Position numbers and translations under genes: made by a program. The notes beneath the pieces were generated by a model. It searched no databases. It had not been told where the DNA came from and was given only the letters and a program-made list of their open reading frames with translations. A DNA stretch of 63,081 nucleotides, the filler included, from Reclinomonas americana ATCC 50394 (lineage: Eukaryota): assembly GCA_048213135.1 (NCBI GenBank). It is 7 parts of 3 records of this genome, joined end to end, with 100 filler letters (N's around TTAATTAATTAA, not from the genome) between each part and the next. Parts side by side here need not be neighbours in the genome. Positions count along the whole stretch, not along the records: positions 44,391 to 54,940 come from PS015425.1; positions 55,041 to 57,111 come from PS015425.1; 5 more parts are not named here. The stretch is one strand, 5' to 3'. Every line of letters starts with the position of its first letter. Positions within the stretch are counted from its first letter, which is position 1. Below are positions 21,483-63,081 of this stretch, one piece after another.

Positions 21483-21893
21483 AACAAACTGGAAGCAGAT
21501 TGCAGGAGGGACGAGGGTGGAGATACGACAGCAACGACAACTTGAAGCAACACAGATGCTGGCGTTTCTCCAAGAGAAACCACGACTCGTGCCAAGCATG
21601 GATTTGACGCCGAGAATGCAGATAGCAAGTGGTGTTGGTATAACGAAGTATCAATCGCGAACGTCACAGAAACCGAACACGCTGGTTTCACATCTCTTCT
21701 GCGGCTGCTACTGCGGTCCGGATGGGAGACGCAAGAGATGATTGTGCCTGATATGCATTTCGCTTTGCATTGCCATGCAAAGCCGGCCATGATTGTGGTG
21801 TCCGTTTGTCATGCATTGAACGTCGCGTCCGTTTCGAAACCTTTCAGTGAGGAGTGAGAGAGAGGAGAGTGGAGAGAGTGTGTGTCTGTGACA

Positions 21894-26299: not shown

Positions 26300-28582
26300 T
26301 TACTGACTGTTGATGTCCTCCGAGAACATATCCTGCACCTCCATCGCGGTGTAGTTGGCGCTCGGCGAGCCGAACAGGTGATAGGTGGCCTTCAGACCGA
26401 CCAGCGTGCTGCAATTGTAATCACAGTGTGAGGTTGTGCATGTACACACGATAACACGACTGGAATGGAATGGTACTCACGCTCGCAGATCCTGCTGCAC
26501 CACACCGCCAGTGAACTGGCTGCGGAGGAGGGCAATCAGGAAGTCGGCGCTGGCCGAATTCAGAGAGTTGACCAGGGGGTTGGCGAACGAAGTGGTCACC
26601 GTGTAGATCTGCACGCAAACAGCAATCAGCAAGTGCACAGTAACAAACAACAACAACAATTCTTTCCCCAACAAACGAGCAACAGCTGTGAATTCGAAGT
26701 TCAACCATAACCAAATCATCTCTCTCTCTCGTCTTCACCCTGTTCCCCCTCAACGCAACTGGGTTGATCTTATCATTGAAGGTCATGGTGACGGTCCAAC
26801 GAAGAGAGTTCTTCTCGGCGACCGTCAACTGCGCGACATTGGCCGACGGATAGTAAATGTCGAACATGATGGCGCTCGTGGTGGACAGCGACAAGTTGAT
26901 GCGGACCGAGGCCGGTGCCGCCAGCTCTGTGCACAGGCGAAGAAGCGGAGTGAGTGAGTTGCAAGACTCCTCGGAAGCACAGCGCACTGATGAGAAGGCA
27001 CTCAACGAGGCAGCTGTCCCATGGGAATGTAAGCAGTGCCGATATCGATAGGGTTCGTGCTTGCGTTGTTCATAATTTGCACCTGACAAGGGACGCAGTG
27101 AGAAGCCTGACATAACCACAAGTGACACTGCCCCCCCTCCGCACCATGACAAACGGAATCTTCTGTACGGCCGACGACGGCTGGAAGAAGAACTCGGTGT
27201 AGTTGACGCCGACGGGTCCGACGCTCGAAGAGTAGTTGATAGTCTTGCACGAGTTGGTGTCGGACGGGAGGCACGGTCCCGGAGGGAGATATGGGTCCGG
27301 CGGAATGAGCGAGAAGGCAATGTTGTACTTGAGATCAGTGCCCACTGGTGGCGTCCAGCTGACCTTGATGCGCGAAGCACCGTTGCTGTTGACAGAAATG
27401 GCTGTGTACGTGCATGGGGGTGTAAGAGTGCGCCAAGCACTTGCATGCGATGTTTGATGCGACGAAACTGATGAAGCGGCATGGATCCGGAGGGAAGAGG
27501 AAGCCGGTGGGAGTCGAGAAGCACAGCTTGTACTGGCCCACCGTCGACGATTGCAGCTGCGCAACAGGGTGAGCATCCAAGCCACCACTGCATACAAGTG
27601 CAGTTGTAAACAAACCCGAATGACAGCCACTCCATTGTCGGCACTGACCATGCTGGTCGTGATCGTGGTCACCGGCGGTGACGAGCAATCGCCACTCAGC
27701 GGGTGCAGCGACGGCACAAAGTCGGGGCAGCTCTGGTTGTAGCAGCTGGTGTTGGAGCGGTAGAAGACGTTGCCCTTCAGCTGCGCCGTCAGGTAGTAGC
27801 CGACAGGGAAGAATGAAATCGGTCCGTTCGGGTTGCCGCCAGTGAACGGCACGTTGGTGCTCTCGATGGCCACAGCACCGCCGACCGACGCTGGATACAG
27901 AGTGAGCCAAGGTACATGTTACACGTCTTGTGTGTATGTGTGTGGTGGGTGTGTGTATCTCACCGGTGACAATGGTGTACTTGGCAATTGGCACAGCCGG
28001 CACCGTCTTGCCAGCGGCGCGGTAGCAGATGGAGAACTGCGTGCCGGCAGGTGCAAGGCTGTCCGTGACGATGGCGATGCGCGCAGTGGTGAAGCCAGCG
28101 TAGACGACCTCCAGGTGAGCGCTGATGCCGGGGACGTCAGGTGCCGGCGTGCAAGCCGCCAGACGGTCGGGGTCCGACTGGTACGATCCGTCGGCAAACG
28201 GGTCGCCGGAGAGTGGGTTGCTGGCGAATGTGGTGCCAACGAACCAGGCGTCAGCAGTGTTGAGGCCGACGCCAGTGAACCTGTGGTGTGAGCGAAGGAT
28301 GAGCATTTTCTGCCTCGATGTGGGGAAGGAGCGAAGAACAACAACAACAACGCAACAGGTAGGAGACGAGGAAGTTGTAGGGCACCGAATCGACGCCCGG
28401 CGGAGGCACGGGCAGGGGCGATGCTTGCGCTGATATGTAGAAAGAGGGAGTAGGAGAGTACGAGTGAGTGCAAGAGTGTCGGCTAGCCTGTTTGTGTGTT
28501 GCGCGCTCGCACCTTGCGCAGCCAGTATCGTGGCCAGCAGCAGTGTGGAGAGCACCACGTACACAGTGGAGGACGCACGCAT
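26300..28582 (-). CDS. Secreted orphan protein, copy 1 (10 exons)
   Basis: Signal peptide MRASSTVYVVLSTLLLATILAAQ; nine GT-AG introns give an uninterrupted frame to TAA at 26302-26300; paralog directly upstream. Confidence 0.85.
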
Positions 28583-29795
28583 GGCGTTGTTGTTGTTGTT
28601 GTTGAAGATGATTTGGGGGTTGCCTGTTCTCCCGAGGCAAGTGCGAAAACTGTGATATGATATTCGCCTCTCACTCGAGGAAAGATACTGTCCGGTGGTG
28701 GTGATGATCGTCATCAAGTTCGGTGTCCGGAAATGCGTTCGCGACCTTCATGATGACCAACCGCTGCGAGGGAGAGGAAAGCGGAAATGCAAACCAGTAC
28801 AGAGATGCCAGCGGTGTGCTGCATGCCGCGCAGATGAAGGCGCGCTCAAACGGAAAGAAGAGATCGGAATCTGGAATGCTAGCTATAGATGCGAAACAAG
28901 CAATCATGTGATGGAACGAGCAGGCAATGTCGCAGCGCGCTAGCGGGTCACACAACAATGCAATGCAGTAAAGTGATCAAATGCATGTGGTGGCATTCGA
29001 TGCGCTTCGATATCCTGGTTGAACAAGAGAACAGTTTTTATTGGCGGATTCTGGATTCCAAATTCGGCATACAAGAAAATCTGCATGCAAAGTGTCGACG
29101 TGTCTGCATCGTCCAGTGAGACATGGTGGAGGGGAATGATGAGGGTTCAGAGACAATCTTTCACCAATAAACGAGCAACAGCAGTTGCTTTGATGACGGA
29201 AAACCATATGTCTAAAACTTCTTCGATATCTCACTTCTGTTTCTCTTTCTTTCTTTCTCTCTGTCTCTCTCTCTCTCCGTTTCTCTCTCTCTCTCTGCAA
29301 TTCTTCATGTTGCTTGCGCAGCGCTTCCCACTGCGAGTCCATGACCTCTTGCAGTGCAACGTGTCTGCACACGTTTTATCACTCTCTCGATGGGGTGACT
29401 CGGCTGTCATGGGGTACGAGGGGCCTGGCCGGCGCATGTGTGCTGGTAATCCGTTTCTCATCCTCTTCTTCTTCTCCTTCTGCATCCGCACTTCATTCTT
29501 ATCATTTCGTCTCTCTCTCTCACTCTTTCTCTCTCTTCCAATCTTTTCTCCTCCTCCATCGTTGCCTCATTCTTCTTCTCCTTCTAGCAGTCGTGCGATC
29601 TCAGTCTTGAGTGCTTCCACCAATGTTCTCTTGGAGAATCACCACAGCAGTGATGAGTCGACCATCGCCACACAGAAGCACACTGGAGAGTCCACGTTCA
29701 CTGACTTGACGCACGAGAAGAACGCCTGTGATCTCTGCGCCAACAAGCTCCGAGTGCTTGGGAGGGAAGGAAGAAAAAACAAGAAAAGAGGAAGG

Positions 29796-32095
29796 TCACT
29801 GCTTCTCGACTGCGTCGCTGAACAACTCCTTCACTGCCATCGCAGTGTAGTTGGCACTCGGCGCGCCAAAGAGCTGGTACACGCCCTTGAGACCAATCAG
29901 CGTGCTGTGTTGACAATGCAGCAATCAGTGCCAGGCCCTCTCTCGTACAGCCAACAGAGCAGTTACTCACGATCGCAAGTCCTGCGGCACCACACCGCCA
30001 GTGAACTGCGTGCGCAGGAGGCCAATCAGGAAGTGCGCATCGGCCGAGTTGGTGTAATCGATGGCGGGGTTGGCAAATGCGGCCGACACGGAGTACACCT
30101 GTGAGAAGAGGGTGATACATGAATTTAGTGAGGAGAGCTAGCTTCACAAACATGCACACCCTTGCTTATCTTTGACGATCTCTCTCTCTCCCGTTCACCA
30201 CGCAACTGGGTTAATCATGTCGTTGAAAGTCATGGTGACCATCCAGCGCAGCGAGTTCTTCTCCGCCTTGGACAGCTGTGTTTTCGGGTAGTAAATGTCG
30301 AACATGATGGTGTCCATGTCGGAGAGCGTCAAGTTGATGCGGACCGAGGCCGGTGCGAGCAGCTCTGTGCACAGTTGGCATGTGAGTCGCAGGACGTGGC
30401 AGACTGTCGAGACAAGGCACTCAACGTGGCATCTTGCCCATGGGAATGTAAGCAGTGCCAATGTCGGTGGGATTCGAGCTAGCGTTGTTCATGATTTGCA
30501 CCTATGCACACATATTCGCTGTGAGAAGACTGACACAAAAATACGGCGTGAGAAACCACCCTCCCTCACCATGACGAACGGAATTGATTGCGTGGCCGAC
30601 GACGGCTGAATGAAGAACTCGGTGTAGTTGACGCCCACGGGTCCGACACTCGTGGAGTAGTTGACAGTGCGGCACGAGTTGGTGTCGGACGGAATGCATG
30701 GTCCGGGGGGAAGATCGAGGCACGGTCCCGGGGGCAGGCATGGATCCGGCGGGAGGTAGGGGTCCGGCGGGAAGAGTGAGAAGGCAATGTTGTACTTCAG
30801 ATCAGTGCCCACTGGCGGTGTCCAACCGACCTTGATACGCGAAGCACCAAGAGTGATGACCGACATGCCTGCATGAGAGAGTGAGCCGGGTGAGAGAGAA
30901 AAGAGAAGAGAGAGAGAGAAAGGCAACAGGCAACAAAGAAAGGTAATCACACGCAACTGACAAAGCGGCATGGACCCGGAGGGAACAGGAAGCCGGTGGG
31001 AGTCGAGAAGCACAGCTTGTACTGGCCCACTGTCGACGATTGCAGCTGCACAACACAGGGTGAGCATCCATGCCACCATTGCATACAAGTGCCACGCGCA
31101 GTTGTAGACAAACCCGAATGACAGCCACTCCATTGTCGGCGCTGACCATGCTGGTCGCCACCGTGGTCACCGGCGGCGACGAGCAATCGCCACTCAGCGG
31201 GTGCAGCGACGGCACAAAGTCGGGGCAGCTCTGGTTGTAGCAGCTGGTGTTGGCGCGGTAGAACACGTTGCCCTTCAGCTGCGCCGTCAGGTAGTAGCCG
31301 ACAGGGAAGAATGAAATCGGTCCGTTCGGGTTGCCGGCAGTGAACGACACGTTGGTGCTCTCGATGGCCACGGCATCGCCGACCGAGGCTGGATACAGAG
31401 TGAGCCAACGCACGTGCATATATTACAGTCTGCTGTGTGGTGTGTGTATGTGCGTGCGTGTGTGTGCGTATTAGTTTGTGTGTATGTGTGGTGGTTAGTT
31501 TCTCTCACCGGTGACAATGGTGTACTTGGCAATCGGCACAGCCGGCACCGTCCTGCCAGCGGCGCGGTAGCAGATGGAGAACTGTGTGCCGGCAGGCGCC
31601 AGGCTGTTGGTGATGATGGCGACGCGCGCAGTCGTAAAGCTGGCGTAGACGACTTCCAGGTGAGCGCTGATGCCGGGGACGTCAGGTGCCGGCGTGCAAG
31701 CCGCCAGACGGTCGGGGTCCGACTGGTACGATCCGTCGGCAAACGGGTCGCCGGAGAGTGGGCTGCTGGCGAATGTGGTGCCGACGAACCAGGCGTCAGC
31801 GGTGTTCAGGCCGACGCCAGTGAACCTGTGGTGTGAGCGAAGGATGAGCATTTCTTGTCAGGAAGTGGGGAAGGAGAAAAGCACAACAACGCAACAGGTA
31901 GGAGACGAGGAAGTTGTAGGGCACCGAATCGACGCCCGGCGGAGGCACGGGCAGGGGCGACGCTTGAGCTACAGGAGAAAGCGCACTGAGGATACACGGG
32001 TAAACAGAAATTGTATGCAATCCTGACATACCGTGCGCAACAAGCGCGGCCAACACGACAAGTGCAACGAGCACAGTCGACAGCGACTTGCTCAT
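29796..32095 (-). CDS. Secreted orphan protein, copy 2 (10 exons)
   Basis: Signal peptide MSKSLSTVLVALVVLAALVAH; same intron positions as copy 1; extra PPDPC/PPGPC units; TGA at 29798-29796. Confidence 0.85.
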
Positions 32096-32598: not shown

Positions 32599-32930
32599 AA
32601 GAGGCAGAAGAAGCAGAGCACAAGAGAAAGAGAAGAGGAGGCAGAGGAAGCAGAGGGAGGGAGAGAGAAAGCACCGGAAAAAGTCAGACCAAAGATTCGC
32701 AGCCACATCATGGACCAGAAGAAACAAAGCAAAGAAAGCAGGGAGAGAGAGCGTGAGAAAGAAAGCAAAGAAAGCAGAGAGAGAGAGAGAGAGAGAGCGA
32801 GAACAGACGAAAACTATCAGACCAAAGATTCGCAGCTACAGCATTCACCGTTTCCTCACACAACTTTCACTACCCAAACAAACAGCAGGCACGGCACGCA
32901 ACACACACACACACACCACATGCATGTCTC

Positions 32931-37167
<4,237 letters not shown>

Positions 37168-38169: not shown

Positions 38170-40099
<1,930 letters not shown>

Positions 40100-40247
40100 T
40101 CGAAAGCAAGTAGCGATAGTTTTTTTCCCATGCTCTCTCTCCTTTTCCTCGGCTCCCCACGTCGAGAGTAACCAACCCCTCCCAAACAAGACACTCAATA
40201 ATACATTTCTATTACAACCTATTGTTTTCTTAGTTAGTTGGGCTGGC

Positions 40248-46973: not shown

Positions 46974-48040
46974 ATCGGCGAGTGCGTTTCGATGAAAGTG
47001 CGCTGGCACTGGTTGTCAGTGCGGGCGACTCGAGCCTGCGCACACGACGGCAACGTGCGCGACGAACTCACCCACGTGTTTGTCGCTCTCGGCGTGCACA
47101 GGCATCGTCGGTGGTGAGTGTGAGTGTGCAGAGAGAGCGTTATGTAAATCCTGTTGCGTGTGTGCGTTTCTTGGGAGCTTCTCCAAGTTTTCTTTGTATG
47201 TGTTGTTGTTGTTGCTGACCTGTCTCTCTGGTGGCCTGTGTGGTGTGTACATTCGCACAGTCGGAGGTGAGTGGTGGTGCGCTGTGTGTCGAGTGTGTTG
47301 AATTGATTGAAATCAACGTTGTGTGTGTTTTTTTGTTTGTGTGGCTGCGTGTTTGTGCTTGGTGCACAGTTGTCCGACGAGGCGGGCGACTTGAAGGTGC
47401 GTAGAGGCAGACGTTGCTCGTGTTTGCTCTCTTCAGTCGACTTACATTGTGTCGTTGTTACACTGTGGATGCGCGCAGCTGGTGAGTTGTTCTCTGTTTG
47501 TGTGTGCGCGTGTGTGTTGTGCTTTGAACCTGACCCACGTTTCACGTGCAGGCGCTGGAGGAGTCGCGGATGGAGTTACAGAAGAAGGAGGCAGAGTACG
47601 TCGAAGCACTGAAGAAGAAGGATGTGGAGGTGGAGGAAAAGCTGCGCGCGAAGGACGCAGAGGCCGAGGTGCGAGTGCTGCAAGCGGCGCTGCGTGAGAA
47701 GAACGCGGAGGCCGAGGCGCGAGCGCTGCAAGCGGCGCTGCGTGAGCAGATCATGGTTTGTGATCGGGTGTTTCATCCCTTGTGTTTGGTCGAACTGTTG
47801 ACTGATCGCCCTCTCCTCTCCTTCCCCTTGTTCTTGAAACGGTAGTGCTTGTTTCTCAGCGAGCAAATGCTGGAGATGATGGCGCGCGTTTCCGAGCGTC
47901 GCTTGCAGGCTGCAGTCTTGGTGTCGCGCACGGAAGAGTGGGCGGCGGCTGAGCTGGTTCGCGTCGAGCGGGAGCTCCAGCAGGACGAGGCCACGCTGGA
48001 GCGCTTGCGTGCTGAGCTCGACAAGCTCAAGCGTGCTTGA
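46974..48040 (+). CDS. Coiled-coil protein with micro-exons, copy A (start uncertain)
   Basis: Phase-0 exons splice to ASSV|SE|LSDEAGDLK|L|ALEESRMELQKKEAEYVEALKKK...ELDKLKRA*. Confidence 0.7.
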
Positions 48041-49064
48041 GTTGGTCTTCGGCAGCGAGGACCATGAATGCACAAGCACATAACTGTGCTTGTTGTCGTT
48101 ATCTGTCGATGACGACACACCCTTTCTCTGTTGTATTCTCCCTCTTTCTGGAGATCTCTGTGTTGTGTTATTTTCTTTCACGTCTCGTCAGCTCACATGT
48201 TTTCACGGGAGTGTATCTGTGCACTGTCGACGCACAACTGCAGAGAGTAACTCTTGTTGTTTTTGTGTCTGCGGCTGGCAACTGACGTCGACCGCGTACG
48301 CATCATTGGTAGCAATTTACTTTCGGTTTGGTTGTGCCCGTTGGTGGTGCTGCACACGACAAGTGGTTGGTGGAGAGACTCGAAACCCATTGTCCAGATC
48401 GCAGCGCGCGCGATCGATATCATGATCATTCCCCAGTCGTAGTCGCTTGTTGACGTACTCATGTGCCTCGCCGACTAGGATCACGAGACTGAATAAAAGC
48501 AACGCTTCTCAAGAAACTTGGAATCAATGTACAGTAACTGCGATCGAATTCACTTTTTGCAAACAATTGCGCTGCTGCTGCAGTTGCTGGAAGGATGGTA
48601 TGTAAACAACAAGAAGCACGACAACCGCCGCATACAAATAAACCAAACAGGTGAACGACCGGCGAACTGCTTTCGTCCTGGGTGGTTGGTGTCCCATGAA
48701 AAGTTTGTCTCTGTCTTCGTACTCGAATAGTGAGCGTGAACTCGCTCGCACGCCTGTGTCTCCTTCCGTGCTCCCTGTGTGTTGCTGTGAGTCACCAGCT
48801 GTTGGGAATGTCAGTCGCTGTCCACTCTCTCGGTGGTGGCAATTGTTGCACACAAAGGATAGTGATTGGAGAAGGGAGAAGAGAAGGAGGAGGAGGAGGN
48901 NNNNNNNNNNNNNNNNNNNNNNNNNNNNNNNNNNNNNNNNNNNNNNNNNNNNNNNNNNNNNNNNNNNNNNNNNNNNNNNNNNNNNNNNNNNNNNNNNNNN
49001 NNNNNNNNNTGCTCGCCTTTCACGACGAACTCACCCACGTGTTTGTCGCTCTCGGCGTGCACAG

Positions 49065-50072
49065 GCATCGTCGGCGGTGAGTGTGAGTGTGCAGAGAGAG
49101 CGTTATGTAAATCCTGTTGCGTGTGTGCGTTTCTTGGGAGCTTCTTCAATTTTTCTTTGTTTGTGTTGTTGTTGTTGTTGTTGCTGACGTGTCTCTCTGG
49201 TGACCTGTGTGGTGTGTACACACGCACAGTCGGAGGTGAGTGGTGGTGCGCTGTGTGCAGTGTGTTGGATTGATTGAAATCAACTTTGTGTGTGTATTTT
49301 TGTTTGTGTGTTTGCGTGTTTGTGTTTGGTGCACAGTTGTCCGACGAGGCGGGCGACTTGAAGGCGCGTAGAGGCAGACTTTGGCACGTGTTTGCACTCT
49401 CCAGTTGACTCACATTGTGTCGTTGTTGCACTGTGGATGCACGCAGCTGGTGAGTTGTTCTCTGCTTGTTTGCGCGTGTATGTTGTGCTTTGATACCTGT
49501 ATTGTTCCTGACCCACGTTTCACGTGCAGGCGCTGGAGGAGTCGCGGATGGAGTTGCAGAAGAAGGAGGCAGAGTACGTCGAAGCACTGAAGAAGAAGGA
49601 TGTGGAGGTGGAGGAAAAGCTGCGCGCGAAGGACGCAGAGGCCGAGGTGCGAGTGCTGCAAGCGGCGCTGCGTGAGAAGAACGCGGAGGCCGAGGTGCGA
49701 GTGCTGCAAGCGGCGCTGCGTGAGAAGAACGCGGAGGCCGAGGCGCGAGCGCTGCAAGCGGCGCTGCGTGAGCAGAAGCAGATCATGGTTTGTGATCGGG
49801 TGTTTCATCCCTTGTGTTTGGTCGAACTGTTGACTGATCGCCGTCTCGTCTCCTTCCCCTTGTTCTTGAAACGGTAGTGCTTGTTTCTCGGCGAGCAAAT
49901 GATGGAGATGATGGCGCGCATCTCCGAGCGTCGCTTGCAGGCTGCAGTCTTGGTGTCGCGCACGGACGAGTTGGTGGCGGCTGAGCTGGTCCGCGTCGAG
50001 CGAGAGCTCCAGCAGGACGAGGCCACACTGGAGCGCTTGCGTGCTGAGCTCGACAAGCACAAGCGTGCTTGA
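49065..50072 (+). CDS. Coiled-coil protein with micro-exons, copy B (5' end in gap)
   Basis: Near-identical tandem duplicate of copy A, introns included, with one extra 48-nt (16-aa EAEVRVLQAALREKNA) unit. Confidence 0.7.
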
Positions 50073-51369
50073 GATGGTCTTCGGCAGCGAGGACCATGAA
50101 TGCACAAGCACACAACTGTGCTTGTTGTCGCTATCTGTCGATGACGACGCACTCTTTTTTTGTTTTTACATATTCTCCCTCTTTCATTGCGACGTTTTTT
50201 TTCTCTCTATTCTTATGACTTGAGTTTCAGGGACGTGCGACGGTACTCCTCTTCAGCTACGCACACGCGAGTATAACTGTTGAACCCTGCTCTCAATGTT
50301 CATCTGTGAGATTTAGAGGTAGTGGAACAATTTCAGTCTTTGTTTGTGATACTACACAAGGATGATTCGGAAAGCATTCATCTGTGCACCGTTGGCCTCT
50401 CAACTCACAGACTGTGATCGATGTTCATCAAGCGTCTACAACAACCAGCAAACAAGCAACATGTAATATACAGTTATGTGAGCGCCGAGGAGCAGCAGCA
50501 GCAGCAACATGGAGGAGAAGGACGAGGTCAACAAGGAGGAGGAGACGAGTCGTTGGCACTGAGAAAGACACGCACCACTCTGCTGAGTCTGCACAAGGCA
50601 ATATCACCATTCGCGGAATTTCACACCATATACCTGTACCACCACCGCACTGATTGGAAGAGAGCGANNNNNNNNNNNNNNNNNNNNNNNNNNNNNNNNN
50701 NNNNNNNNNNNNNNNNNNNNNNNNNNNNNNNNNNNNNNNNNNNNNNNNNNNNNNNNNNNNNNNNNNNNNNNNNNNNNNNNNNNNNNNNNNNNNNNNNNNN
50801 NNNNNNNNNNNNNNNNNNNNNNNNNNNNNNNNNNNNNNNNNNNNNNNNNNNNNNNNNNNNNNNNNNNNNNNNNNNNNNNNNNNNNNNNNNNNNNNNNNNN
50901 NNNNNNNNNNNNNNNNNNNNNNNNNNNNNNNNNNNNNNNNNNNNNNNNNNNNNNNNNNNNNNNNNNNNNNNNNNNNNNNNNNNNNNNNNNNNNNNNNNNN
51001 NNNNNNNNNNNNNNNNNNNNNNNNNNNNNNNNNNNNNNNNNNNNNNNNNNNNNNNNNNNNNNNNNNNNNNNNNNNNNNNNNNNNNNNNNNNNNNNNNNNN
51101 NNNNNNNNNNNNNNNNNNNNNNNNNNNNNNNNNNNNNNNNNNNNNNNNNNNNNNNNNNNNNNNNNNNNNNNNNNNNNNNNNNNNNNNNNNNNNNNNNNNN
51201 NNNNNNNNNNNNNNNNNNNNNNNNNNNNNNNNNNNNNNNNNNNNNNNNNNNNNNNNNNNNNNNNNNNNNNNNNNNNNNNNNNNNNGAGGCACATCTCCCC
51301 TCTCCCTCTCTCTATTCTCACCGCGTCACCATCGGCAATCAACAGACCACCAGTCGATCGCGAGGAAGG

Positions 51370-51600
51370 ATGAGCGCCGAGGAGCAGCAGCAACAGCAGC
51401 AACAAGGAGGAGGAGGTCAACAAGGAGGAGGAGATGAGTCGTCGGCATTGGGAAGGCGTGCGTCGTTGGTGTTTCAGAACCCGTTGCGCGCGGGTGGAAC
51501 GGGCAGTGGAGAGCTGGGCGTCGATCAGCTGTTTGAGATGTGGTTGGTGAGTGAGTGTGTGTGTGTGTGCGAAATTGATGTGTGGAGTCGCTGTGCATGA

Positions 51601-51654
<54 letters not shown>

Positions 51655-52205
51655 CGCGCGACTGTGTGCGTGTTTGTGTTCGTGCGAGTGATTGTTGTGC
51701 GGAGTAATTGGCGTGTTTTCATGGTGTTATCCCTCACTCTCTCTCTCTCACACACATACTTTCTCTCTTACACACACACACACACACACTCTCTCTCTCT
51801 CTGTGATGCGTTTGCACGAGTGTGATTGTGAGAACGACCGGGAACACATTGCATATGTGTGTATTGCGAGTCTCTCTCTCTCTGTCTCTCACTCTTTCTC
51901 TCACACTTCTCTCTGTCTCTTTCTCACACACACACTCTCTCCCTCTTTGTCTGTGTGCTCACGCGCATGTAACTGTGAGCGACGTTGAATATCGCGCTCA
52001 CTCTGTTCCTCTCATGTTGTGCTGTTATCGCCTTCTCCTCTCCCTTTTCCTCTCTCTCTCTCTCCCTCCCTCTTCTCTTTGTGGCGTGTGGAAGTGTGAG
52101 AATGAATGCATGTGAAGAGCGCATGGCGTGTGTTCTTTGTTGTCAGTGAGACCTTTTGGCGTGAGTGAGCGATGATGTGTACGTGTGTGCGTGCGTGAGA
52201 ATGAG

Positions 52206-52246
<41 letters not shown>

Positions 52247-55200
52247 ACGAGAGACACGAGCTGAATGCATCGCAGCACAGAGTTCTTTCGGCCAATCTTT
52301 GCATGTTCGATCATCCTCACCCTCTCCTTCCTCGTCATCTGATCGCAGGAGGAGCAAGGCTTCCCTGGCCCCGCCCGCGACCGCCTTCGTGAGCTCGACC
52401 AGCCGAAGAAGATCCAAATGATGCAGCTGTCAGAGGCGCGCGCGTCGGTGGCCAAGACCGCCGCCTACTTCCTCAGTGCGTTGCGCGAGCGACCGGTCAA
52501 GCTGCAGACTGTGGACAATCTCGTGCAGGAACTGCGGTGAGTGGGGGATAGAGGGAATGCGAGGGAAAGGGGGGTGGAGAGAGACAGGAGAGAATTCGCT
52601 ATGCTCTGTCCCCGAAAGTCGCTGTCACATCGTTGAGCTGCCGCATGCACATGCACATAACTGGACACGGCCTCGTCACCAGGGCCAGCAAGCTGAGCGT
52701 GTTGTCGCACTATCTTTCCTTGTGTCTCAAGTCTCCTCATCCAGCTATTATCTCTCTATTCTCTATCTCTCTCTCCTCCTATTCCTGTAGGGCCTCGTGT
52801 TCCTGCTCCGCTTCCTGTTCATGCTCTGTTTTCTGTTCCTCTTCTGCCTCCTGTTCCGTCTCCTGTTCCTCCTGTTCCTCCTCCTCCATCTCCCTCTGTT
52901 TTGGAAGTCCAGCAGTCGCAGTAACGAGCGCGGCTCTATCGTTAAAGCACAATCGTTAAAACACCTCTGTGTGTAGTATAGTAGCGATAGGCCCTTTTGT
53001 CATTCACCACTCACTCATCTCTTGTGCACAGCTCGCAGCCCGTCAAGTGGGTAAAGGAGTTTGTCGACGCCGAAGGTGTGACTGTCCTGTTTGATCTGCT
53101 CGGCGCCGGTGTCAAGTTACGCACGCTGGCCTCGCGCTCCTGTGTGTAGTGCGTGTATTCATATTTCGTCGTTGCGCCGACCGCAGAGACCTGCCCGACA
53201 TGATTCCGTCGGTGCTCGATGCCTTCCGTGCGCTCACCAACAGCGATGTCGGCCTCGCGGCGTTCCTCAGCCGCAGCGAATCGCTGCGACGCGTGTTTGA
53301 GCTGATGAACTCGAGGAGTCCGCGCATCAAGACGCAGGTGCGAGACTCGTCGGGCAGTGTCCTCCGTCCAACCATGGCTAATCACTTTCGCTGCGCAGGT
53401 GATGCAACTGATGTCGACCGTCATCTGGAAGCAAGACGCGCAAGATGATGGCTCGGGCATTTTCTGGCTGGCCCTGGATGCTGTCGACCACTTTGCATTT
53501 GTGCAGCGGGAGCACACTCGCTTCGAGACCTTGGTCCGCTCGCTGACCACGGTGGACGATGTGGCGTTCAAGGTGAGACTCCGATGTGTTTGTCTTACCT
53601 TCAAGCACAAATCCACCACACTCACTCTTTTGTTTTTTCCTGCACGCAGATGGCCGCCGTCACGTTCCTCAACGTGCTGCTGAGTGTCTCGGACGACCTG
53701 CGCCCGAAGCTGAAGCGCGAGTTCAACCGGCTGAACCTGTTGCGCGTGCTGCAAGCTCTGCGTGAGGTGCAGTACCCGGACGAAGGCTTCATGAGCCATC
53801 TCGACACGCTCGAGGAGGAACTCACCGCGCCTGAAGAGGTGCAGTGCAACTTGCATTCTCTGTGTGATATGCGTGCAACTCACGTGCGATACTTGCTGCG
53901 GCGTAGGAGGGCGGAGTGGACTCGGAATATCCTTCTTGTCACTGCTTCCGTGTCCATATTTGCACGTATTGCTCATCGTCGTTCTGTCCTTGACTCGTAT
54001 CTCGTTTTTAGCACGGATCCGCATGCGCTGGTGTCTTCGATTGCACAGCTCCTGGATGACGCACGTGAGGCTCGCGGTCTCTTCATCGAGGCGCTGCAGG
54101 CGATGCACTCTATCGCCAAGGTCTCCTCTCAGTTGCGTCTCACAAACTCGATTGCACCTTGCAGTTCTTGATGCTTACTCTCGCTCTCCTCCTCGTACAG
54201 GGGCATTGATCGACGCGCCAACACACTGCGCACAGTGGCTCGCTTTGCGGATCGTGCTCGTGCCGAGCTCGACCACGGTGTGGTGGAGGATGATCGAGGT
54301 ACGACGCTTGATAATTGCTGTCCCTTTTGCCGTGCACTCAGCCGCGCTACAGATTTTGTTGGCATGCGACTGCGCATGGAGCAACTGCAGGCCGAGTTGG
54401 CCAATGCGCGAAAGCGAGTGCAAGAGCTGGAACTCGACACTGGCCGTGATCGCGTGCTCATCAATCGTGAGCGACAGACGCTCGAGTTCGCCAGGTGCGC
54501 ACAGAACCGCTCGTCGGGCGATTGTGTTGAAGCTGACGCACACCTCTCTGCCACCTTTGCAGGCAGGGTCTGACGGAGGAGCTGACCACGGTCATGTCGC
54601 TGGTGCGCGAGACATCGCTTCCCGGCATTCTCAACAAGCTCACCAGCATGGCGCCGACGACGGAGGTTCGTGTCATGCTTCTCGTTGCGATTCTTCGTCG
54701 CCTCTCATGCATTGCTGCAGTTTGGCTCCGCTGCGCGCCAATCCTTGTTGCACGTGGTCCGTCTGGCCCAGAGTGGAGGTGCTGGCAATGTGCGTTCGCT
54801 TTCGAGAGAAACTTGCACTCACTTTTCAATTTCTCGCTCGCAGGTCCTCTGCCTCCCGCACCCGCCGCCCCTGGTGCTCCCCCGGCGCCTCCGGTGCCCG
54901 GTGCACCACCAGCGCCACCTGTTCCCGGAGCGCCCCCGGCNNNNNNNNNNNNNNNNNNNNNNNNNNNNNNNNNNNNNNNNNNNNTTAATTAATTAANNNN
55001 NNNNNNNNNNNNNNNNNNNNNNNNNNNNNNNNNNNNNNNNCATGTGAGAGGAGCGTGTCATCTTCTCCTCCAGCCACTGACTCTCCTTCGACGTGTGGCG
55101 CACAGGCATTGTGCTGAACAGCGTGTTCGCCAAGGCCGACTACCAGGAGTTGCGACGCAACATTCTTCGCATGGAGAATCTGTCGGAGCGCATGGTGCAG

Positions 55201-57111
55201 GCGCTTGGTGGACTGGTGCCCACCAATGATGAGGTGCGGTAAAAGGGGAAGGAGGGGGAAGGAGAGGGATGGGGAGGGAAGGAGAGGGAAGGGGAAGGAG
55301 AGGGAAGGATAGGGAAAGAGAGATGACAGGACTGACGCACTTGCCCTGCAGATTGAACTCGTGATGAGCTACGACGGTCCGGGTGAGCTGGGCCAGCCGG
55401 AGCGCTTCATTCGTGCGGTACGTGTGAGGCGCAGAATGAGCAGCAAGCTGGGGAGATTTTCTTACACCAGTGATGCAGGTGGCGGATATTCCGCGCCTCT
55501 CTGCGCGCATTGGATGCTGGCAGTTCACCAACCAGTGGCGTGATCGCGTGGAAGCTCTGCAGCCAGTTCCGTGTTGCAGAAGGAGTGACACCGAGATATT
55601 CAGTGAGCTGACAAACATGCACTGAGTAACGCACGTGCTGACTGGTTTATATGAGGAACGACATGCAGTGCTCACCGAGATGTACAGTGAGCATACAACC
55701 ATGTTTTGAGAGACGCACATACTGCCCGATTGTAGAGGACAGACATGCAGTGAGCCGAGTTACACGCATGAATTGAGAAACATGCAGAGAGAGATGGACA
55801 TACTGCCCGGTTGTAGAGGACAGACATGTAGTGAGCCGAGTTACACGCGTGAATTGAGAAACATGCACAGAGAGATGGACATGCAGACTGGTATTCGAGG
55901 AAAGACATGCAGTGCACACTCAGGTAAATAGTGAGTTGAGAAACATGCACAGAGAGATGGACATGCAGACTGGTATTCGAGGAAAGACATGCAGTGCACA
56001 CTCAGGTAAATAGTGAGTTGAGAAACATGCACAGAGAGATGCACATCGATCTGAAGTCGCTGACTACCGCACACTGAAGTCTTGTGAGAGAGAGAGAGAA
56101 GAAAGGGAGCAAGGAGAGCGAGGTATGTGCGACGCAGAGAGTGTGAGTGAGAGAGCGAGCTGAGGCACATGCTGTGAGACCTGCCACGAGCTGTGAGATC
56201 CGCTGTAATGCTCTACTCGCACTGTGGCACATTTTGTGAGGGACAAGCAGTCCGCGACTGGAGAGGACCTTCCTCTCTTACCACCCTCATCCTCCTCCTC
56301 CTCCTCCTCCCCCACGCGCGACTGTGGCACATTTTGTGAGGGACAAGCAGTCCGCGACTGGAGAGGACCTTCCTCTCTTACCACCCTCACCCTCATCCTC
56401 CTCCTCCTCCCCCACGCGCGCAGCAAATCGCCACCGTGCAATTCGCCTGCGAGGAACTGCGCCGATCGCAAAAGTTCCACCACCTGCTGCAGGTGGTGCT
56501 CGCCGTCTCCAACGCGATGAACGGCAGTGGATTCCGCGGCAATGCGTACGGATTCAAGATGGACAGCTTGCAGGAGGTATATTCTTTCACCTGACCGCGA
56601 CGCCGTGAATCGCTTTGCATTCTCACGCTCTGTGCACGCAGCTGCGAAACACCAAGGGCGCCAACGGAGTCTCTCTCCTCACCTTCTTTGTCGAGCACCT
56701 GCTCCGACACAAGCGCGACACGCTGGATGTGCACGCCGATTTGGCGCATGTTGCCGACGCCAGTCGCAGTTGAGTGCACACTCTCCCCCCGTGCTTCTGT
56801 TGGCTCCATACAGTGCACTCACTCACTCTGCCGACAGTCAATATGCCCGCCGTGCGCGAGGACATGGGTGTGCTGACAAAGAACTTCAACATTATCCAGT
56901 CGCAGCTAAAGGCGGCGTCGGACGACCCGAACGACGGATTCAAGGCCCGCATGACGCGCTTCCTGCAACAGCACGAGGCCAAGTACCAGGAGCTGGTCAC
57001 GCGTATGGCACAGCTCGAGGAGGATGTGCAGACGACTGCCAAGTTCTTTGGCGAGGATCCCAGAAAGTTCGACTCGGAGGCCTTTTTCCGCAACATTGAG
57101 CAGTTTTTGCG
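51370..57111 (+). CDS. Diaphanous-related formin (GBD-FH3-coiled coil-FH1-FH2), 3' partial
   Basis: GBD (LRSQPVKWVKEFVDAEGV), FH3 (RFETLVRSL, FLNVLL), poly-Pro FH1 at 54845-54940, FH2 (LGQPERF, IPRLSARI, NAMNG..RGNAYGFKMDSL..LRNTK, FFGEDP...FF). Confidence 0.93.
53927..54014 (+). other. U12-type (minor spliceosome) intron in formin
   Basis: Donor ATATCCTT at 53927, branch point TCCTTGAC at 53987-53994, 3' end AC at 54014 (or AG at 54011); both ends keep the frame. Confidence 0.85.
55600..56045. repeat. Intronic minisatellite, ~81-82-bp unit, about 5 copies
   Basis: gagaaacatgca.agagagatg recurs at 55775, 55856, 55938 and 56020. Confidence 0.85.
56221..56420. repeat. 100-bp tandem duplication at the 3' end of a formin intron
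   Basis: actgtggcacattttgtgagggacaagcag... at 56221 and 56321; only the second copy is followed by the CAG acceptor. Confidence 0.9.
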
Positions 57112-57261
57112 NNNNNNNNNNNNNNNNNNNNNNNNNNNNNNNNNNNNNNNNNNNNTTAATTAATTAANNNNNNNNNNNNNNNNNNNNNNNNNNNNNNNNN
57201 NNNNNNNNNNNCGGTGAACAAGAAAACTTGTGTGGCGCTGACAAAGACAATACGTACACAG

Positions 57262-57477
57262 TGACTTCTACAACTGCCCGGTCTACAAGATCAACACAAG
57301 GCAGTACACGCAGCATGTGTTTGACGTGTTGTTGCACGCCGGTGGCAAGCCTGGTGCGTTGATTTGTGATGTAGTCAAGAAACCATGTTGGCGGAGACTG
57401 ACCCTTTTACCTCTTTCCCTCCTCCAGAATATCACTGGATTCTCCGTGGCGTCGCTCTGTTGTGCGCCAAGGATTAA
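57262..57477 (+). CDS. Dynein heavy chain, last two exons, on a flipped contig
   Basis: Exons 57262-57353 and 57428-57477 give DFYNCPVYKINTR...KPEYHWILRGVALLCAKD*, the canonical axonemal dynein C-terminus. Confidence 0.9.
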
Positions 57478-57604
57478 GTGCGGCGGGTGCCTGTGTGTGA
57501 TTGTGTGTATACTTGTTTTGCGTTTTTTCGCTTGCTTCCTTTAATGAACATGGTTCGTAATGCACAACAAAATGCCCGCGCGACTGCGCCACCCACCCCA
57601 TCCA

Positions 57605-58240: not shown

Positions 58241-58503
58241 NNNNNNNNNNNNNNNNNNNNNNNNNNNNNNNNNNNNNNNNNNNNNNNNNNNNNNNNNNNN
58301 NNNNNNNNNNNNNNNNNNNNNNNNNNNNNNNNNNNNNNNNNNNNNNNNNNNNNNNNNNNNNNNNNNNNNNNNNNNNNNNNNNNNNNNNNNNNNNNNNNNN
58401 NNNNNNNNNNNNNNNNNNNNNNNNNNNNNNNNNNNNNNNNNNNNNNNNNNNNNNNNNNNNNNNNNNNNNNNNNNNNNNNCAAAAACACTCAAGAAACACG
58501 CAC

Positions 58504-61500
58504 CGTGCTCGACCCAGTTGTTCATCTGGTCAAAGCGCTGCATGAGTGCCTCGAACCAGTTACCGAGAGACGGCGCCGGCCATGAGATCTTGAGCCACTT
58601 GGGCGGCACACGACCATCGTAGATCTGGCAAACAAACACACCAACACTCAAGTCAGCACAAGAAACCACTCTGCCAGGCACCCAAAACACACTGAAACAT
58701 AAAACGCACCGAGTTCAGCGCCGACTGCAGATCCACACTCATGATAATGGTGCCGGCAATGGCCAGCTTGAGATCCGACAGCGTGCGGCGTACCAACGTA
58801 ATCACCATCTGCAAGCGATCGATCTCTTGCAGGATGAAAATGTTGAGTGGCTCGCTCGGCGGGTGAATGCGCTCGCGGCAGTGGTCCTTGTCAAAGTCAC
58901 GCGGCAGCTTGCTCAACATGTCGTCGGCAGAGCGCTCCACTTCCTCCTCGCGTGTCAAACCCGAGCCACCACCACCCTCCTTGGGTTGAATGTCCAGCGC
59001 AGTCGACAACACCTGGCAATCCACAAAACAAGAGAAAAAGTCAGCGATCAATGGAATACTCGCTCACGGTGGGCAGAAGAGGCACGCACCGCTCCCGACT
59101 CCTTCATGCGGAATGTGAGATCGGCGTTGGGGTGCAGACCGTACACCTCCGGTGACTCCACGTCGGGCAACAGGGACACCGCCTGGCGGAAGAACGTAAT
59201 CTCGTTCGCCTCGCCGCTGCCTTCGGCAACTGGCGGGCGCGACGGGACGCGGTAACCCGGATAGAATTCGTAGGCATTGGTCAGCACGTAGTCGGCCAGG
59301 TAACGCTCGGCGTACGTGTTGAAGAGGCGGCGATCCTTGTCGTCGGTGATACGACCGCCGTAGTGAATCTCGGACACCATGTACCGAATGGTCTCGTACG
59401 ACGGTTGCTTCTTGCGAGGATCGTCGCCAATCTGGAACATGTGCTTCTCCAGGAAGGACACGGAAGCTGCATAGTGCATGCACAATGAGAGTGTGAGAAA
59501 ACAGTGCGCGGAGGGAACAACCAACACCGACGACCAACCTTCCAAGTCCGACTGGTTAAACTCGTACGGAATGTTCCATCCGAGCGGACCAAACTTGCGG
59601 CGCTCCTGCACCACCGAGTGCAAGAAGCAGGTGGTGTACAGCAGCGGCTTCCACTCCGGGCGTGTGACACGCTCCAACATATCCAGCGACACCCACTGGA
59701 ACGAGCGCTCCAGGCCAGCGCGAATGCCGCGCGGCGGCTCGTTGGTGAGCTTGATGGACATTTGCAGCAGGCCAATGGGGAAGTTCGGGTGCGGCTCCGA
59801 GGTGACCCACAGGCGGAAGTTCTCGTGAATCTCCGTCGTCTTCATCAGCGTGTCTTCGATTTCACCCATGAAGCCCAGACCCAGATGGCAGTTCTGCAGC
59901 ATCAGCCACGTGCCCTTCTGGAATCCGTTCTGCATCAGGGCGCGAGCGCGCGGCTCCTGACCACGGCCGAGCGAGATTGTGTCGATTGACGTCTGCACAC
60001 AAAAGAGCATGAAAGAGAGGTTAGCCATGTCCTGTCGGCGTGCGTGCGTGCGTGTGTGTGACTGTTTTCTCGCCTTCTTCTTCTTGGCCAGGGCATAGAT
60101 CGAGCCGGTCGGATCGGAGCCTGGTGACAGCACGTACAGAATCGGGCAGCGAGCATTGCTCTCCTCATAAGCGTCCTCCAAGTTCGGCACAATGCCTGTC
60201 ACATACTCCTTGCGTTCCAGCGTCGGCGTGTCGGCGATAAAGTCGGCGGCAGCCAACATGGTACGATCCTGGCGGAGCGAGCGCACCAGCAGGAGGCGAT
60301 CAAATGACGACAGCCTGTGAAGGAATTCCGTGTGAGTCTCACGAAGCGAGGAACAGGAGAGGTGCTAGCAGAGTACGCAACTTGTCGTGCAAGTCTGGCA
60401 CCTTTTGCGCCTCGGGATTCTCAGAGTCGTACCACAGACCCCACGCGTTGAACTCGTTGCGCTGGATCATGTCGCACAGCTCGCGGAACACCGGAACCGA
60501 GTTCGACAACTGCACCACATTGAGCCAGGCCGAATCGGTGATCCACTCGTACGGCTTGCGACGCGAGTCCTTCAGCGACAGCGTGGCACCGCCCTTCAGC
60601 AGCGTGTTGAAGGCGCTGCGACCGATGGTGCCAGAGTGCAAGTTGATTTCGCAAGCCAGCAGCAGCGAGTACAGTGGCTTGTGAATCTCAAACAGGCCGC
60701 GAGACACGAACACAAAGACAATGAATGTCAGCGTCTCGATAATGTTGCGCACACGCTTGCCAATCAGCGGGTCCTGCAGGCGAGGTGGATGAGTCCAATA
60801 AAACGAAAAAGTAATACTGAGTGAAAGGNNNNNNNNNNNNNNNNNNNNNNNNNNNNNNNNNNNNNNNNNNNNNNNNNNNNNNNNNNNNNNNNNNNNNNNN
60901 NNNNNNNNNNNNNNNNNNNNNNNNNNNNNNNNNNNNNNNNNNNNNNNNNNNNNNNNNNNNNNNNNNNNNNNNNNNNNNNNNNNNNNNNNNNNNNNNNNNN
61001 NNNNNNNNNNNNNNNNNNNNNNNNNNNNNNNNNNNNNNNNNNNNNNNNNNNNNNNNNNNNNNNNNNNNNNNNNNNNNNNNNNNNNNNNNNNNNNNNNNNN
61101 NNNNNNNNNNNNNNNNNNNNNNNNNNNNNNNNNNNNNNNNNNNNNNNNNNNNNNNNNNNNNNNNNNNNNNNNNNNNNNNNNNNNNNNNNNNNNNNNNNNN
61201 NNNNNNNNNNNNNNNNNNNNNNNNNNNNNNNNNNNNNNNNNNNNNNNNNNNNNNNNNNNNNNNNNNNNNNNNNNNNNNNNNNNNNNNNNNNNNNNNNNNN
61301 NNNNNNNNNNNNNNNNNNNNNNNNNNNNNNNNNNNNNNNNNNNNNNNNNNNNNNNNNNNNNNNNNNNNNNNNNNNNNNNNNNNNNNNNNNNNNNNNNNNN
61401 NNNNNNNNNNNNNNNNNNNNNNNNNNNNNNNNNNNNNNNNNNNNNNNNNNNNNNNNNNNNNNNNNNNNNNNNNNNNNNNNNNNNNNNNNNNNNNNNNNNN

Positions 61501-63081
61501 NNNNNNNNNNNNNNNNNNNNNNNNNNNNNNNNNNNNNNNNNNNNNNNNNNNNNNNNNNNNNNNNNNNNNNNNNNNNNNNNNNNNNNNNNNNNNNNNNNNN
61601 NNNNNNNNNNNNNNNNNNNNNNNNNNNNNNNNNNNNNNNNNNNNNNNNNNNNNNNNNNNNNNNNNNNNNNNNNNNNNNNNNNNNNNNNNNNNNNNNNNNN
61701 NNNNNNNNNNNNNNNNNNNNNNNNNNNNNNNCGGAAGTTCTGGTGGTAATCCAGAGCCTGAGAGAGATTGGAGAGAGAAAGAGAGAGTGGGGGTGAGCAG
61801 ATAACATAACATGATGCAAGGTCACCAGCGAGGGGGGCACGAAACTTGCTTGTCACCCATAATGACTTGGAGCATCTGACCCGTCTTCGTAATCTCCTTG
61901 TCGAGCAGAGGATCCATGTAGGGATCAATCTCCTCGCCGACATTCTCAATAATGAGCGGCCAGCCCTGCAATTTGTCACGTGTGTCAGCCACCCGCTCGT
62001 CGATATGCTCAACAGTGGCATAAAAAACGCACCTCACGGCAAGCCTCCTCCAGGCAGAACTTGAAGTGTCGGTCGGAGAACTGCACGACTTGCAGCTTCT
62101 CGTCCGGTCGCTTCGGCTCAAAGTTGCGCAGCCAGGAGAGACCCTGGCCCTGCGGGTCGACAAGCATCGGCCACTTGGTCGACATGGTGACCATGATACC
62201 GTTCTGTGTCGAGTGGTCGTCCTTCGGCAGACCCTGAATGTTCCACTCGCCGGCCTCGCGCTCATCCACCATGAAGCGCGTAATATTGAGGCTGGCAGTG
62301 GTCGGCACTCGTCGCTCATGCAGATCCTTCTGGAAGTGCTCCGAGAGCATCTGGCGGAATTGGGCATTGTACGGGCCGCAGTACGACATAAAGGCCGTGG
62401 CCACGGCCACGTCGCCGACCATGCGGTTGATGGTCTCCTGGAAGGCGTGGCTCTGTCGGCGCCACGAGTCACGCTCACCCGACAATGCACCAATCAGGTT
62501 GTTGGCGCTCTCCATCTTGTGGCGCAGACTGTCGGCCTTCTCTTGCAGCAACTGCTTGTTGCGCACGGCGCGCTCAAACTGCTCCTCAATGGCACGCAGA
62601 TCCGACTCGACAACAGCGAGCTCGGCCTGCTTCGCACGCAGCTTGCCCATGGCCACACGCTGGTTGTCCTCGGCCTCGCGCAACGCAGCACGCTTCGGCT
62701 CGACGACCTTGGCCACCTGTTGTTCATCATCAACGGGTCAGTGACAATGCAGCAATAAATAAAAAAGAAAAACACACGACACTCACATCGTGATACTCAG
62801 CCATGGCGCGCACCCACACGCACAGACCGGAGACTTCCTTGGCCTTCTTGCCGGCAATCTCCTCGGTGAAGTCGAACATGGTGACGTACGGCTGCAGCAG
62901 CTCCACCATCTCGTCATCGATTTCGTCCTTCGGATAGCCCTCCAGATCCTTGGTCAAGTTCGGTCGGCTCAACATGGTGGCCTTCGAGATATCGAACGAA
63001 TCCTGAATCATGATGCGCTCGGCCGTCAGGCTATAGTAGGAGACCGGCACCAGCGGCATGCGGTTGAGAATCAGCACGCCA
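58504..63081 (-). CDS. Axonemal dynein heavy chain, stalk to AAA6/C-terminal region (probably outer-arm gamma, DNAH5/8-like)
   Basis: GLPKDDHSTQNG, WPMLVDPQGQG, LSPGSDPT, GTWLMLQNCHL, FRLWVTSEPHP.FPI.LLQ, QERRKFGPLGWNIPYEFNQSD, YGGRITDD.DRR, LDIQPKEGGGGSG.TREE. Confidence 0.96.

Follow-up and report, generated by a model that had tools for sequence, protein, structure and literature searches.

A probable U12-type AT-AC intron in a Diaphanous-type formin gene of a discoban flagellate, at a position shared with human DIAPH1-3

The closest described counterparts of the element analysed here are the N-terminal minor introns of the human formin genes DIAPH1, DIAPH2 and DIAPH3. The element is a putative U12-type AT-AC intron at positions 53927-54014 (+) of a stretch of genomic DNA of 63,081 nucleotides (hereafter, the window; all positions count along it), and it interrupts a Diaphanous-type formin gene. 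Minor introns are listed in all three human genes in Table S6 of PMC11347168, and in the supplement of PMC8280824 they appear as AT_AC introns together with their flanks. Hand translation of these flanks places the N-terminal introns at M-E-M-D|D-F in DIAPH1, A-E-M-D|D-M in DIAPH2 and A-E-L-D|E-A in DIAPH3, each in phase 2 after an exon ending in GA. Four other formin names, DAAM1, FMNL, INF2 and FHOD, have 0 occurrences in the human minor-intron file of that supplement. More widely, the U12-type (A-type) introns of animals, plants, early fungi, Amoebozoa, oomycetes and Blastocystis, as described in the consulted parts of PMC10639083 and PMC3584512, have the same 5' and branch consensus as the intron of the window, a non-zero phase, and a place as one among many U2 introns. 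The window intron differs from them in that its genome groups with Discoba, its branch distance lies at the edge of the usual range, and the minor spliceosome that would remove it is a predicted one. The intron class is already known but its lineage is unexpected, and the find draws its interest from a lineage described as being without this class and from the position in common with human DIAPH1-3.

Minor splicing has been reported as missing from Discoba. Section 25 of PMC10639083, whose tree includes Andalucia and three Naegleria, gives no evidence of minor introns in this group, and section 17 of PMC11347168, with three Discoba sampled, gives no strong evidence of minor splicing in Excavata. 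The tables of the latter paper contain one minor intron and two high-scoring U6atac matches for Naegleria gruberi, which the authors do not count as strong evidence in the text. Complete loss of the minor spliceosome in Discoba is inferred in the supplement of PMC9887622. According to the consulted parts of the respective papers, diplonemids have no U12 small nuclear RNAs (snRNAs) (PMC10161547, PMC12621601), and the 134 introns reported from Andalucia are all GT-AG (PMC7050145). The three surveys that count Discoba as lacking the minor spliceosome drew on intron-poor or derived samples. The consulted parts of PMC1874599, PMC3488318, PMC2846911 and bioRxiv 10.1101/2021.09.28.462139 have no bearing on jakobids. 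The literature searched, whose coverage lacks most subscription papers, contained no account of minor splicing in a jakobid, so that novelty is not proven.

The host gene (51370-57111, +) is intron-rich and encodes GBD, FH3, a proline-rich FH1 and FH2 in this order, which is the domain order of a Diaphanous-related formin; its FH1 is interrupted by the gap at 54941-55040, its 3' end is lost in the gap at 57112, and the DAD would lie past that gap. The gene is likened to DIAPH as a Diaphanous-type formin by this domain order and not as an established DIAPH orthologue. Pfam Drf_FH3 (weakly) and FH2 were matched on single exons with open frames, and the spliced N-terminal model scored 138 bits against a profile of 11 GBD/FH3 formins. 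A word-index search with the 52-residue FH2 exon returned 11 candidates, of which 0 were significant. Another intron of this gene (55566-56423, +; 858 nt) contains near-copies arranged in tandem (about 55710-56050) and a block that is duplicated (about 56220-56420).

The exon upstream of the region in question (53650-53838) encodes the end of the FH3/DID region and ends in phase 0. It is followed by a U2-type GT-AG intron of 68 nt (53839-53906; donor score 7.3) with a tandem acceptor TAG|GAG at 53904-53909, in which the end at 53906 (3.4) is preferred over that at 53909 (-0.8); the use of the second would remove one Glu. A micro-exon of 20 nt (53907-53926) then encodes E-G-G-V-D-S plus two bases of a split codon. 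The candidate minor intron, 88 nt long (85 nt with the AG end described below), starts with the 5' splice site ATATCCTT (53927-53934) in phase 2. Its donor ATATCCTTC at 53927 fits RTATCCTT(T), the U12 consensus as given in the consulted part of PMC8199999, at 8 of 9 positions, the exception being C instead of T at position +9. The branch word TCCTTGAC (53987-53994) fits the TCCTTRAC criterion of U12-type introns and makes 53993 the branch A, from which an in-frame AG (54010-54011) is 18 nt away and AC (54013-54014) 21 nt. Both 3' ends leave the frame open, with V-D-S-E-D-P from AC 54014 and V-D-S-D-T-D-P from AG 54011, where E becomes D-T and the intron would be of the AT-AG type. The downstream exon (54015-54131) begins with the D-P motif, so that the intron sits in the loop after FH3, directly before the motif that starts the next helix; this exon was assigned from a 31-residue ungapped match to the formin P0106 and from profile alignments. 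The next intron (54132-54200) has the donor GTTGCG, a type common to the CHD and dynein genes of the window. The micro-exon, the TAG acceptor ending at 53906, the donor, the branch point, AG 54011 and AC 54014 agree with the first-pass annotation of this DNA, and all coordinates proved exact.

To evaluate the signals against chance, they were compared with the window itself and with 42 ordinary introns, annotated manually in the CHD (14), ATE1 (3), formin (16) and dynein (9) genes. The exact RTATCCTT has a single occurrence in the window on both strands, while 43 matches were counted at one mismatch or fewer, where 29.6 would be expected. Donor, branch word and end were found in joint pattern once in the window and in none of 100 shuffles. 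A Markov model of the organism's introns gave a probability of about 3e-7 per site, and of about 1e-5 over 43 introns, that both words stand in usable places by chance. None of the 42 ordinary introns had the branch word at fewer than two mismatches or the donor positions +3 to +8 at fewer than three mismatches, and their own branch words were CTCAC or CTGAC in 29 of 38. The minor class accounts for 1 of the 43 introns mapped in the window. A Rfam scan of the window gave 0 matches at the gathering score; at E<=1 there were 31 weak matches on simple repeats, with no spliceosomal family among them. U2-type AT-AC introns (consulted part of PMC1557818) have the same AT and AC ends and fit the U2 donor except at the first base, whereas the AT donor of the window scored -7.0 on the organism's U2 donor matrix; this score and the presence of both U12 words rule out a U2-type AT-AC intron. 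The U12-type identity of 53927-54014, which had been proposed as canonical before this analysis, is strongly supported by the motifs, the composition tests described below and the position common to human DIAPH1-3.

The position was compared by alignment. Mouse mDia1 R-M-E-M-D-D-F-G-E-V-F aligns to M-Q-D-M-T-D-P-E-E-V-F of P0106 (E 3e-14). The D-P of the window formin and its next 29 residues align without gaps to the D-P of P0106, with 10 of 31 residues identical and a score of 41 against 20 at the next best place, and two formin profiles place the two D-P motifs in the same columns. The AT-AC junction of the window, V-D-S-E|D-P, is in phase 2 after an exon ending in GA, in the codon preceding D-P. 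By this transitive alignment, the AC 54014 junction is at the same codon and in the same phase as the minor intron of human DIAPH1-3. The first-pass annotation had suggested a check for an intron position shared with other formins, and the check thus came out positive. We estimate coincidental sharing at about 1e-3, given two DIAPH minor introns and about 3300 coding bases. Nothing in the window formin corresponds to the second DIAPH minor intron, which lies in FH2 (K-M-T|S-F); R-M-T-R-F at 56948 is uninterrupted.

The N-terminal intron of human DIAPH1 (chr5:141577592-141578224) and those of DIAPH2 and DIAPH3, as given in the supplement of PMC8280824 and Table S6 of PMC11347168, are of the same subtype as the window intron, with the ATATCCTT donor, phase 2, the exon end GA and a location in the codon before D-F or D-P. 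The long branch distance is also similar, 19 nt in human DIAPH1 (counted from the row in PMC8280824) and 21 nt in the window. On the other hand, the window intron is 88 nt long, as compared with 633-1914 nt in human DIAPH1-3, and only in the window does a 20-nt micro-exon precede the intron and an in-frame AG compete 3 nt upstream of its end. Some observations reduce the confidence in the shared position. The ungapped anchor was recovered in 1 of 10 formins, the other 9 being too distant, so the mapping to DIAPH is transitive via P0106 and the profiles. Compared with the profile, the window formin also lacks about 7 residues in the loop before D-P. Conservation is nevertheless the strongest of the new lines of evidence, and the shared DIAPH intron suggests that this lineage kept an ancient intron and the machinery for its removal.

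The first-pass annotation had argued that, without the micro-exon, the phase-0 upstream donor and the phase-2 downstream acceptor are incompatible. Donor 53839 joined to acceptor 54011 does yield a stop codon, and to this extent the argument holds. However, the frame is also kept by 23 single GT-AG introns, by 7 two-intron GT-AG solutions and by full retention of 53839-54011, so that the micro-exon is not forced, and phase incompatibility was rejected as proof of the micro-exon model. A stop-free frame of 240 codons (53449-54171, +) spans the upstream intron, the micro-exon and the minor intron and forms a gene-prediction trap. Gene finders restricted to GT-AG will misread the window formin, since several GT-AG paths, as well as full retention, are in frame. 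A search of the PDB with the unspliced frame gave one match, by chance.

The same paths define a reading with no minor intron, in which the major spliceosome would use GT 53966 (a 46-nt intron) or 53862-54011, skip to AG 54048 or leave the region retained in frame, and the U12 words would be relics or products of chance. Every one of these alternatives preserves the frame. When 12 models were scored with a formin hidden Markov model (HMM) built from 16 distant sequences, GT 53966 came first with 65.3 bits, 5.5 bits over AT-AC (59.8), which speaks against the minor intron; 53862-54011 (59.1) was level with the U12 models (AT-AG, 59.0), and retention (52.8) and the skip to AG 54048 (50.4) were lower. 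AG 54048 is a strong acceptor (6.7). We rejected the homology score as a judge between the splice models, since it is too weak: it favours GT 53966 by 5.5 bits and separates AC from AG by less than 1 bit.

Composition distinguished the models more clearly. In a Markov model trained on the organism (7409 coding and 2294 intron bases), the micro-exon had a coding score of +6.7 bits, which was matched by 4 of 492 intron chunks, and the first 39 nt of the minor intron scored -17.9 bits, below 187 of 187 coding chunks. With GT 53966, the coding extension has this score of -17.9 bits, the donor scores -1.8, under all 41 leave-one-out donors, and the intron would be 46 nt long against a minimum of 54 nt among the 42 ordinary introns (39 of which end in CAG and 3 in TAG). 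Retention scores -39.6 bits. The extension to 53862 scores -4.0 bits, a value as low being found in 8 of 304 coding chunks, and the skip to 54048 removes the conserved helix start at D-P. Perfect U12 words at the DIAPH position are left unexplained by every alternative that uses the major spliceosome. Removal of the minor intron restores the conserved frame, with the 138 bits on the GBD/FH3 profile, while the rivals keep the frame yet fail the composition tests. We therefore consider a purely major-spliceosome structure very improbable. The sequence 53927-54014 is, with high confidence, a genuine U12-type AT-AC intron descended from a very early eukaryote, and the flagellate whose Diaphanous-type formin contains it is a discoban, probably a jakobid.

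Two 3' ends are available to this intron. Because the AC 54014 junction coincides with the DIAPH1-3 position, AT-AC is likely to be the main end. In the profile alignment, the columns of human INF2 S-G-G-V-D-M-S-S-H are filled without gaps by E-G-G-V-D-S-E-D-P under AT-AC only. Both this INF2 register and the conserved position favour AC 54014 as the main end. Two results do not favour this choice. The distance from the branch A to the 3' end of U12 introns is 10-20 nt, with an optimum of 11-13 nt, according to the consulted part of PMC8199999, and the 21 nt to AC are barely outside this range; in addition, the profile of the six residues before D-P fails to separate AC from AG (1.0 bit; 58% of 1000 resamplings). 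The protein profiles as a whole are neutral between the two ends, with 0.7-1.0 bit.

It is conceivable, with clearly less confidence, that the same minor intron uses AG 54011 as its main or equally used end, by AT-AG splicing or by regulated AT-AC/AT-AG alternation, so that one residue is added. This AG is nearer to the branch A, its 18 nt being inside the 10-20 nt range (PMC8199999), and it comes after a T run. AT-AG minor introns are real, as they make up 20 of 66 non-canonical cases in Table 2 of PMC1557818 and several human rows in the supplement of PMC8280824, and the choice of the U12 3' end is described as error-prone in the consulted part of PMC3584512. The same source describes AT-AG as disfavoured and alternative 3' ends as possible errors rather than regulation. 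Moreover, the AG end moves the intron one codon off the DIAPH position and breaks the INF2 register. Splicing is probably mostly to AC 54014; real use of both ends is doubtful, and use of mostly AG 54011 is more doubtful still. Alternative AT-AC/AT-AG use, as suggested in the first-pass annotation, is possible but unsupported, and regulated alternation has no support.

From the sequence, we infer the splicing of 53927-54014, the end used and the presence of minor small nuclear ribonucleoproteins (snRNPs) in this genome. In the proposed order of events, the major spliceosome would remove the 68-nt GT-AG intron 53839-53906 ahead of the micro-exon and the minor spliceosome would remove 53927-54014, each intron being defined across its own short length, with the 20-nt exon left between them. 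In the minor intron, the branch A 53993 would attack the intron 5' end, and the exon would be joined mainly at AC 54014 to give V-D-S-E|D-P, while the in-frame AG 3 nt upstream may act as a minor end. Before the attack, the U11/U12 particle would read ATATCCTT and TCCTTGAC, and U6atac would then replace U11, an order taken from the consulted part of PMC3584512.

The retention of U11, U12, U4atac and U6atac in this organism, as the first-pass annotation had proposed, is a reasonable inference. The surveys of PMC10639083, PMC11347168 and PMC9887622, in the parts cited above, report loss of the minor spliceosome in Discoba, and in line with this an ancestrally U12-type intron might now depend for its removal on a modified major or hybrid spliceosome, in an organism that, like other Discoba, has lost its minor snRNPs. 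Such a history is improbable. The donor and the branch word still follow the U12 consensus and differ from the signals of the organism itself, as seen in the U2 donor score of -7.0 and the CTCAC or CTGAC branch words of 29 of 38 ordinary introns; a kept U12 consensus would normally need pairing with U11, U12 and U6atac.

To place the organism, part of a dynein gamma heavy chain gene (58503-63081, -), which is separate from the formin feature, was used. In a first tree, the window dynein grouped with Keelungia and Euglena. A fuller tree of full-length dyneins (57 rows, 934 columns) put it in a clade with Andalucia, Stygiella, Naegleria, Percolomonas and euglenozoans (FastTree 0.999). After 22 of the 57 rows had been dropped, the remaining 35 rows (934 columns) were examined on a fixed interim IQ-TREE topology for the Shimodaira-Hasegawa-like approximate likelihood ratio test (SH-aLRT) and with 68 FastTree bootstraps, and a Discoba clade of 14 members, five of them without names, was recovered in 68 of 68 bootstraps with SH-aLRT 100. 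Andalucia was the best-scoring named dynein. No close relative of the window dynein was found in the collections, where the dynein exon had at most 68% identity over most of its length, or in a metagenome scan with this exon, where the best full-length identity was 63% among the 80 loci kept. By the dynein tree, the window thus shares its supergroup with the surveyed Discoba (Andalucia, Naegleria, kinetoplastids and diplonemids), which are reported, in the sources cited above, as lacking minor introns or the minor spliceosome.

The donor GTTGCG was found in 7 of 42 introns, one of them being the intron that follows the minor one directly, and its presence in the formin, CHD and dynein genes argues for one genome. 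As side observations on the splice sites of the annotated introns (e.g., at 54132, 12233 and 60381), 14 of 42 donors start with GTT, all 7 GTTGCG donors follow an exon base other than G, and the dynein gene contains a GC-AG intron of 81 nt (60073-59993, -).

The placement has its own weak points. The grouping with the jakobids Andalucia and Stygiella is weak (15 of 68 bootstraps, SH-aLRT 66, approximate Bayes support 0.98), and a single gene, which lies on another contig of the scaffold, carries the lineage assignment. Andalucia has two dynein gamma paralogues, the heavy chains P0278 and P0301, which are separated in the tree: one groups with Discoba, and the other is placed near metamonads. 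The intron could accordingly be real while the organism or contig is not discoban, and it would then be one more protist minor intron from an unplaced lineage. This reading is compatible with the one-gene tree, with the linker gaps that part the formin from the dynein and with the Andalucia paralogues; the labelled rows of the dynein tree included no malawimonads, hemimastigotes or Tsukubamonas. Against it stand the 68 of 68 bootstraps for the Discoba clade, the top score of Andalucia among the named dyneins and the GTTGCG donor in the formin, CHD and dynein genes, and we regard a non-discoban origin as unlikely.

It is somewhat more probable than its opposite that the window represents an intron-rich discoban, probably a jakobid, whose minor spliceosome is functional and which has one or more AT-AC introns placed codon for codon as in humans, a case that would be unpublished. 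If this is true, the reported loss in Discoba would represent several later losses, in the Andalucia line, Heterolobosea and Euglenozoa, and the formin intron would go back to the ancestor that animals and Discoba share, which would be the last eukaryotic common ancestor or close to it. Animals and Discoba are on opposite sides of the eukaryote root in most proposals and near the root in the rest, and the age of the intron therefore depends on the position of this root. A discoban with minor introns alters the loss map and adds a deep branch for the reconstruction of ancestral minor introns and snRNAs, and the window formin provides a named, testable intron common to human and discoban.

Other genes in the window (within 10400-21500, 32900-35450 and 39480-40100) encode a CHD-type remodeller, an arginyl-tRNA transferase, a UDP-glucose dehydrogenase and a cytidine deaminase. 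Two pairs of duplicated gene-like blocks, at 26400-31800 (-) and 47500-50200, encode a predicted secreted protein and a coiled-coil repeat protein; for the predicted secreted protein, the open reading frame tested had no Pfam match. Six 100-base gaps (18393, 25252, 34803, 44291, 54941 and 57112) hold a stop-codon linker within the N run, and these linkers make the contig order and orientation across the gaps uncertain. Between two gaps, 57212-57478 (+) contains the apparent last exons of the dynein heavy chain on the strand opposite to the rest of the gene (-), and this piece is probably a mis-oriented contig.

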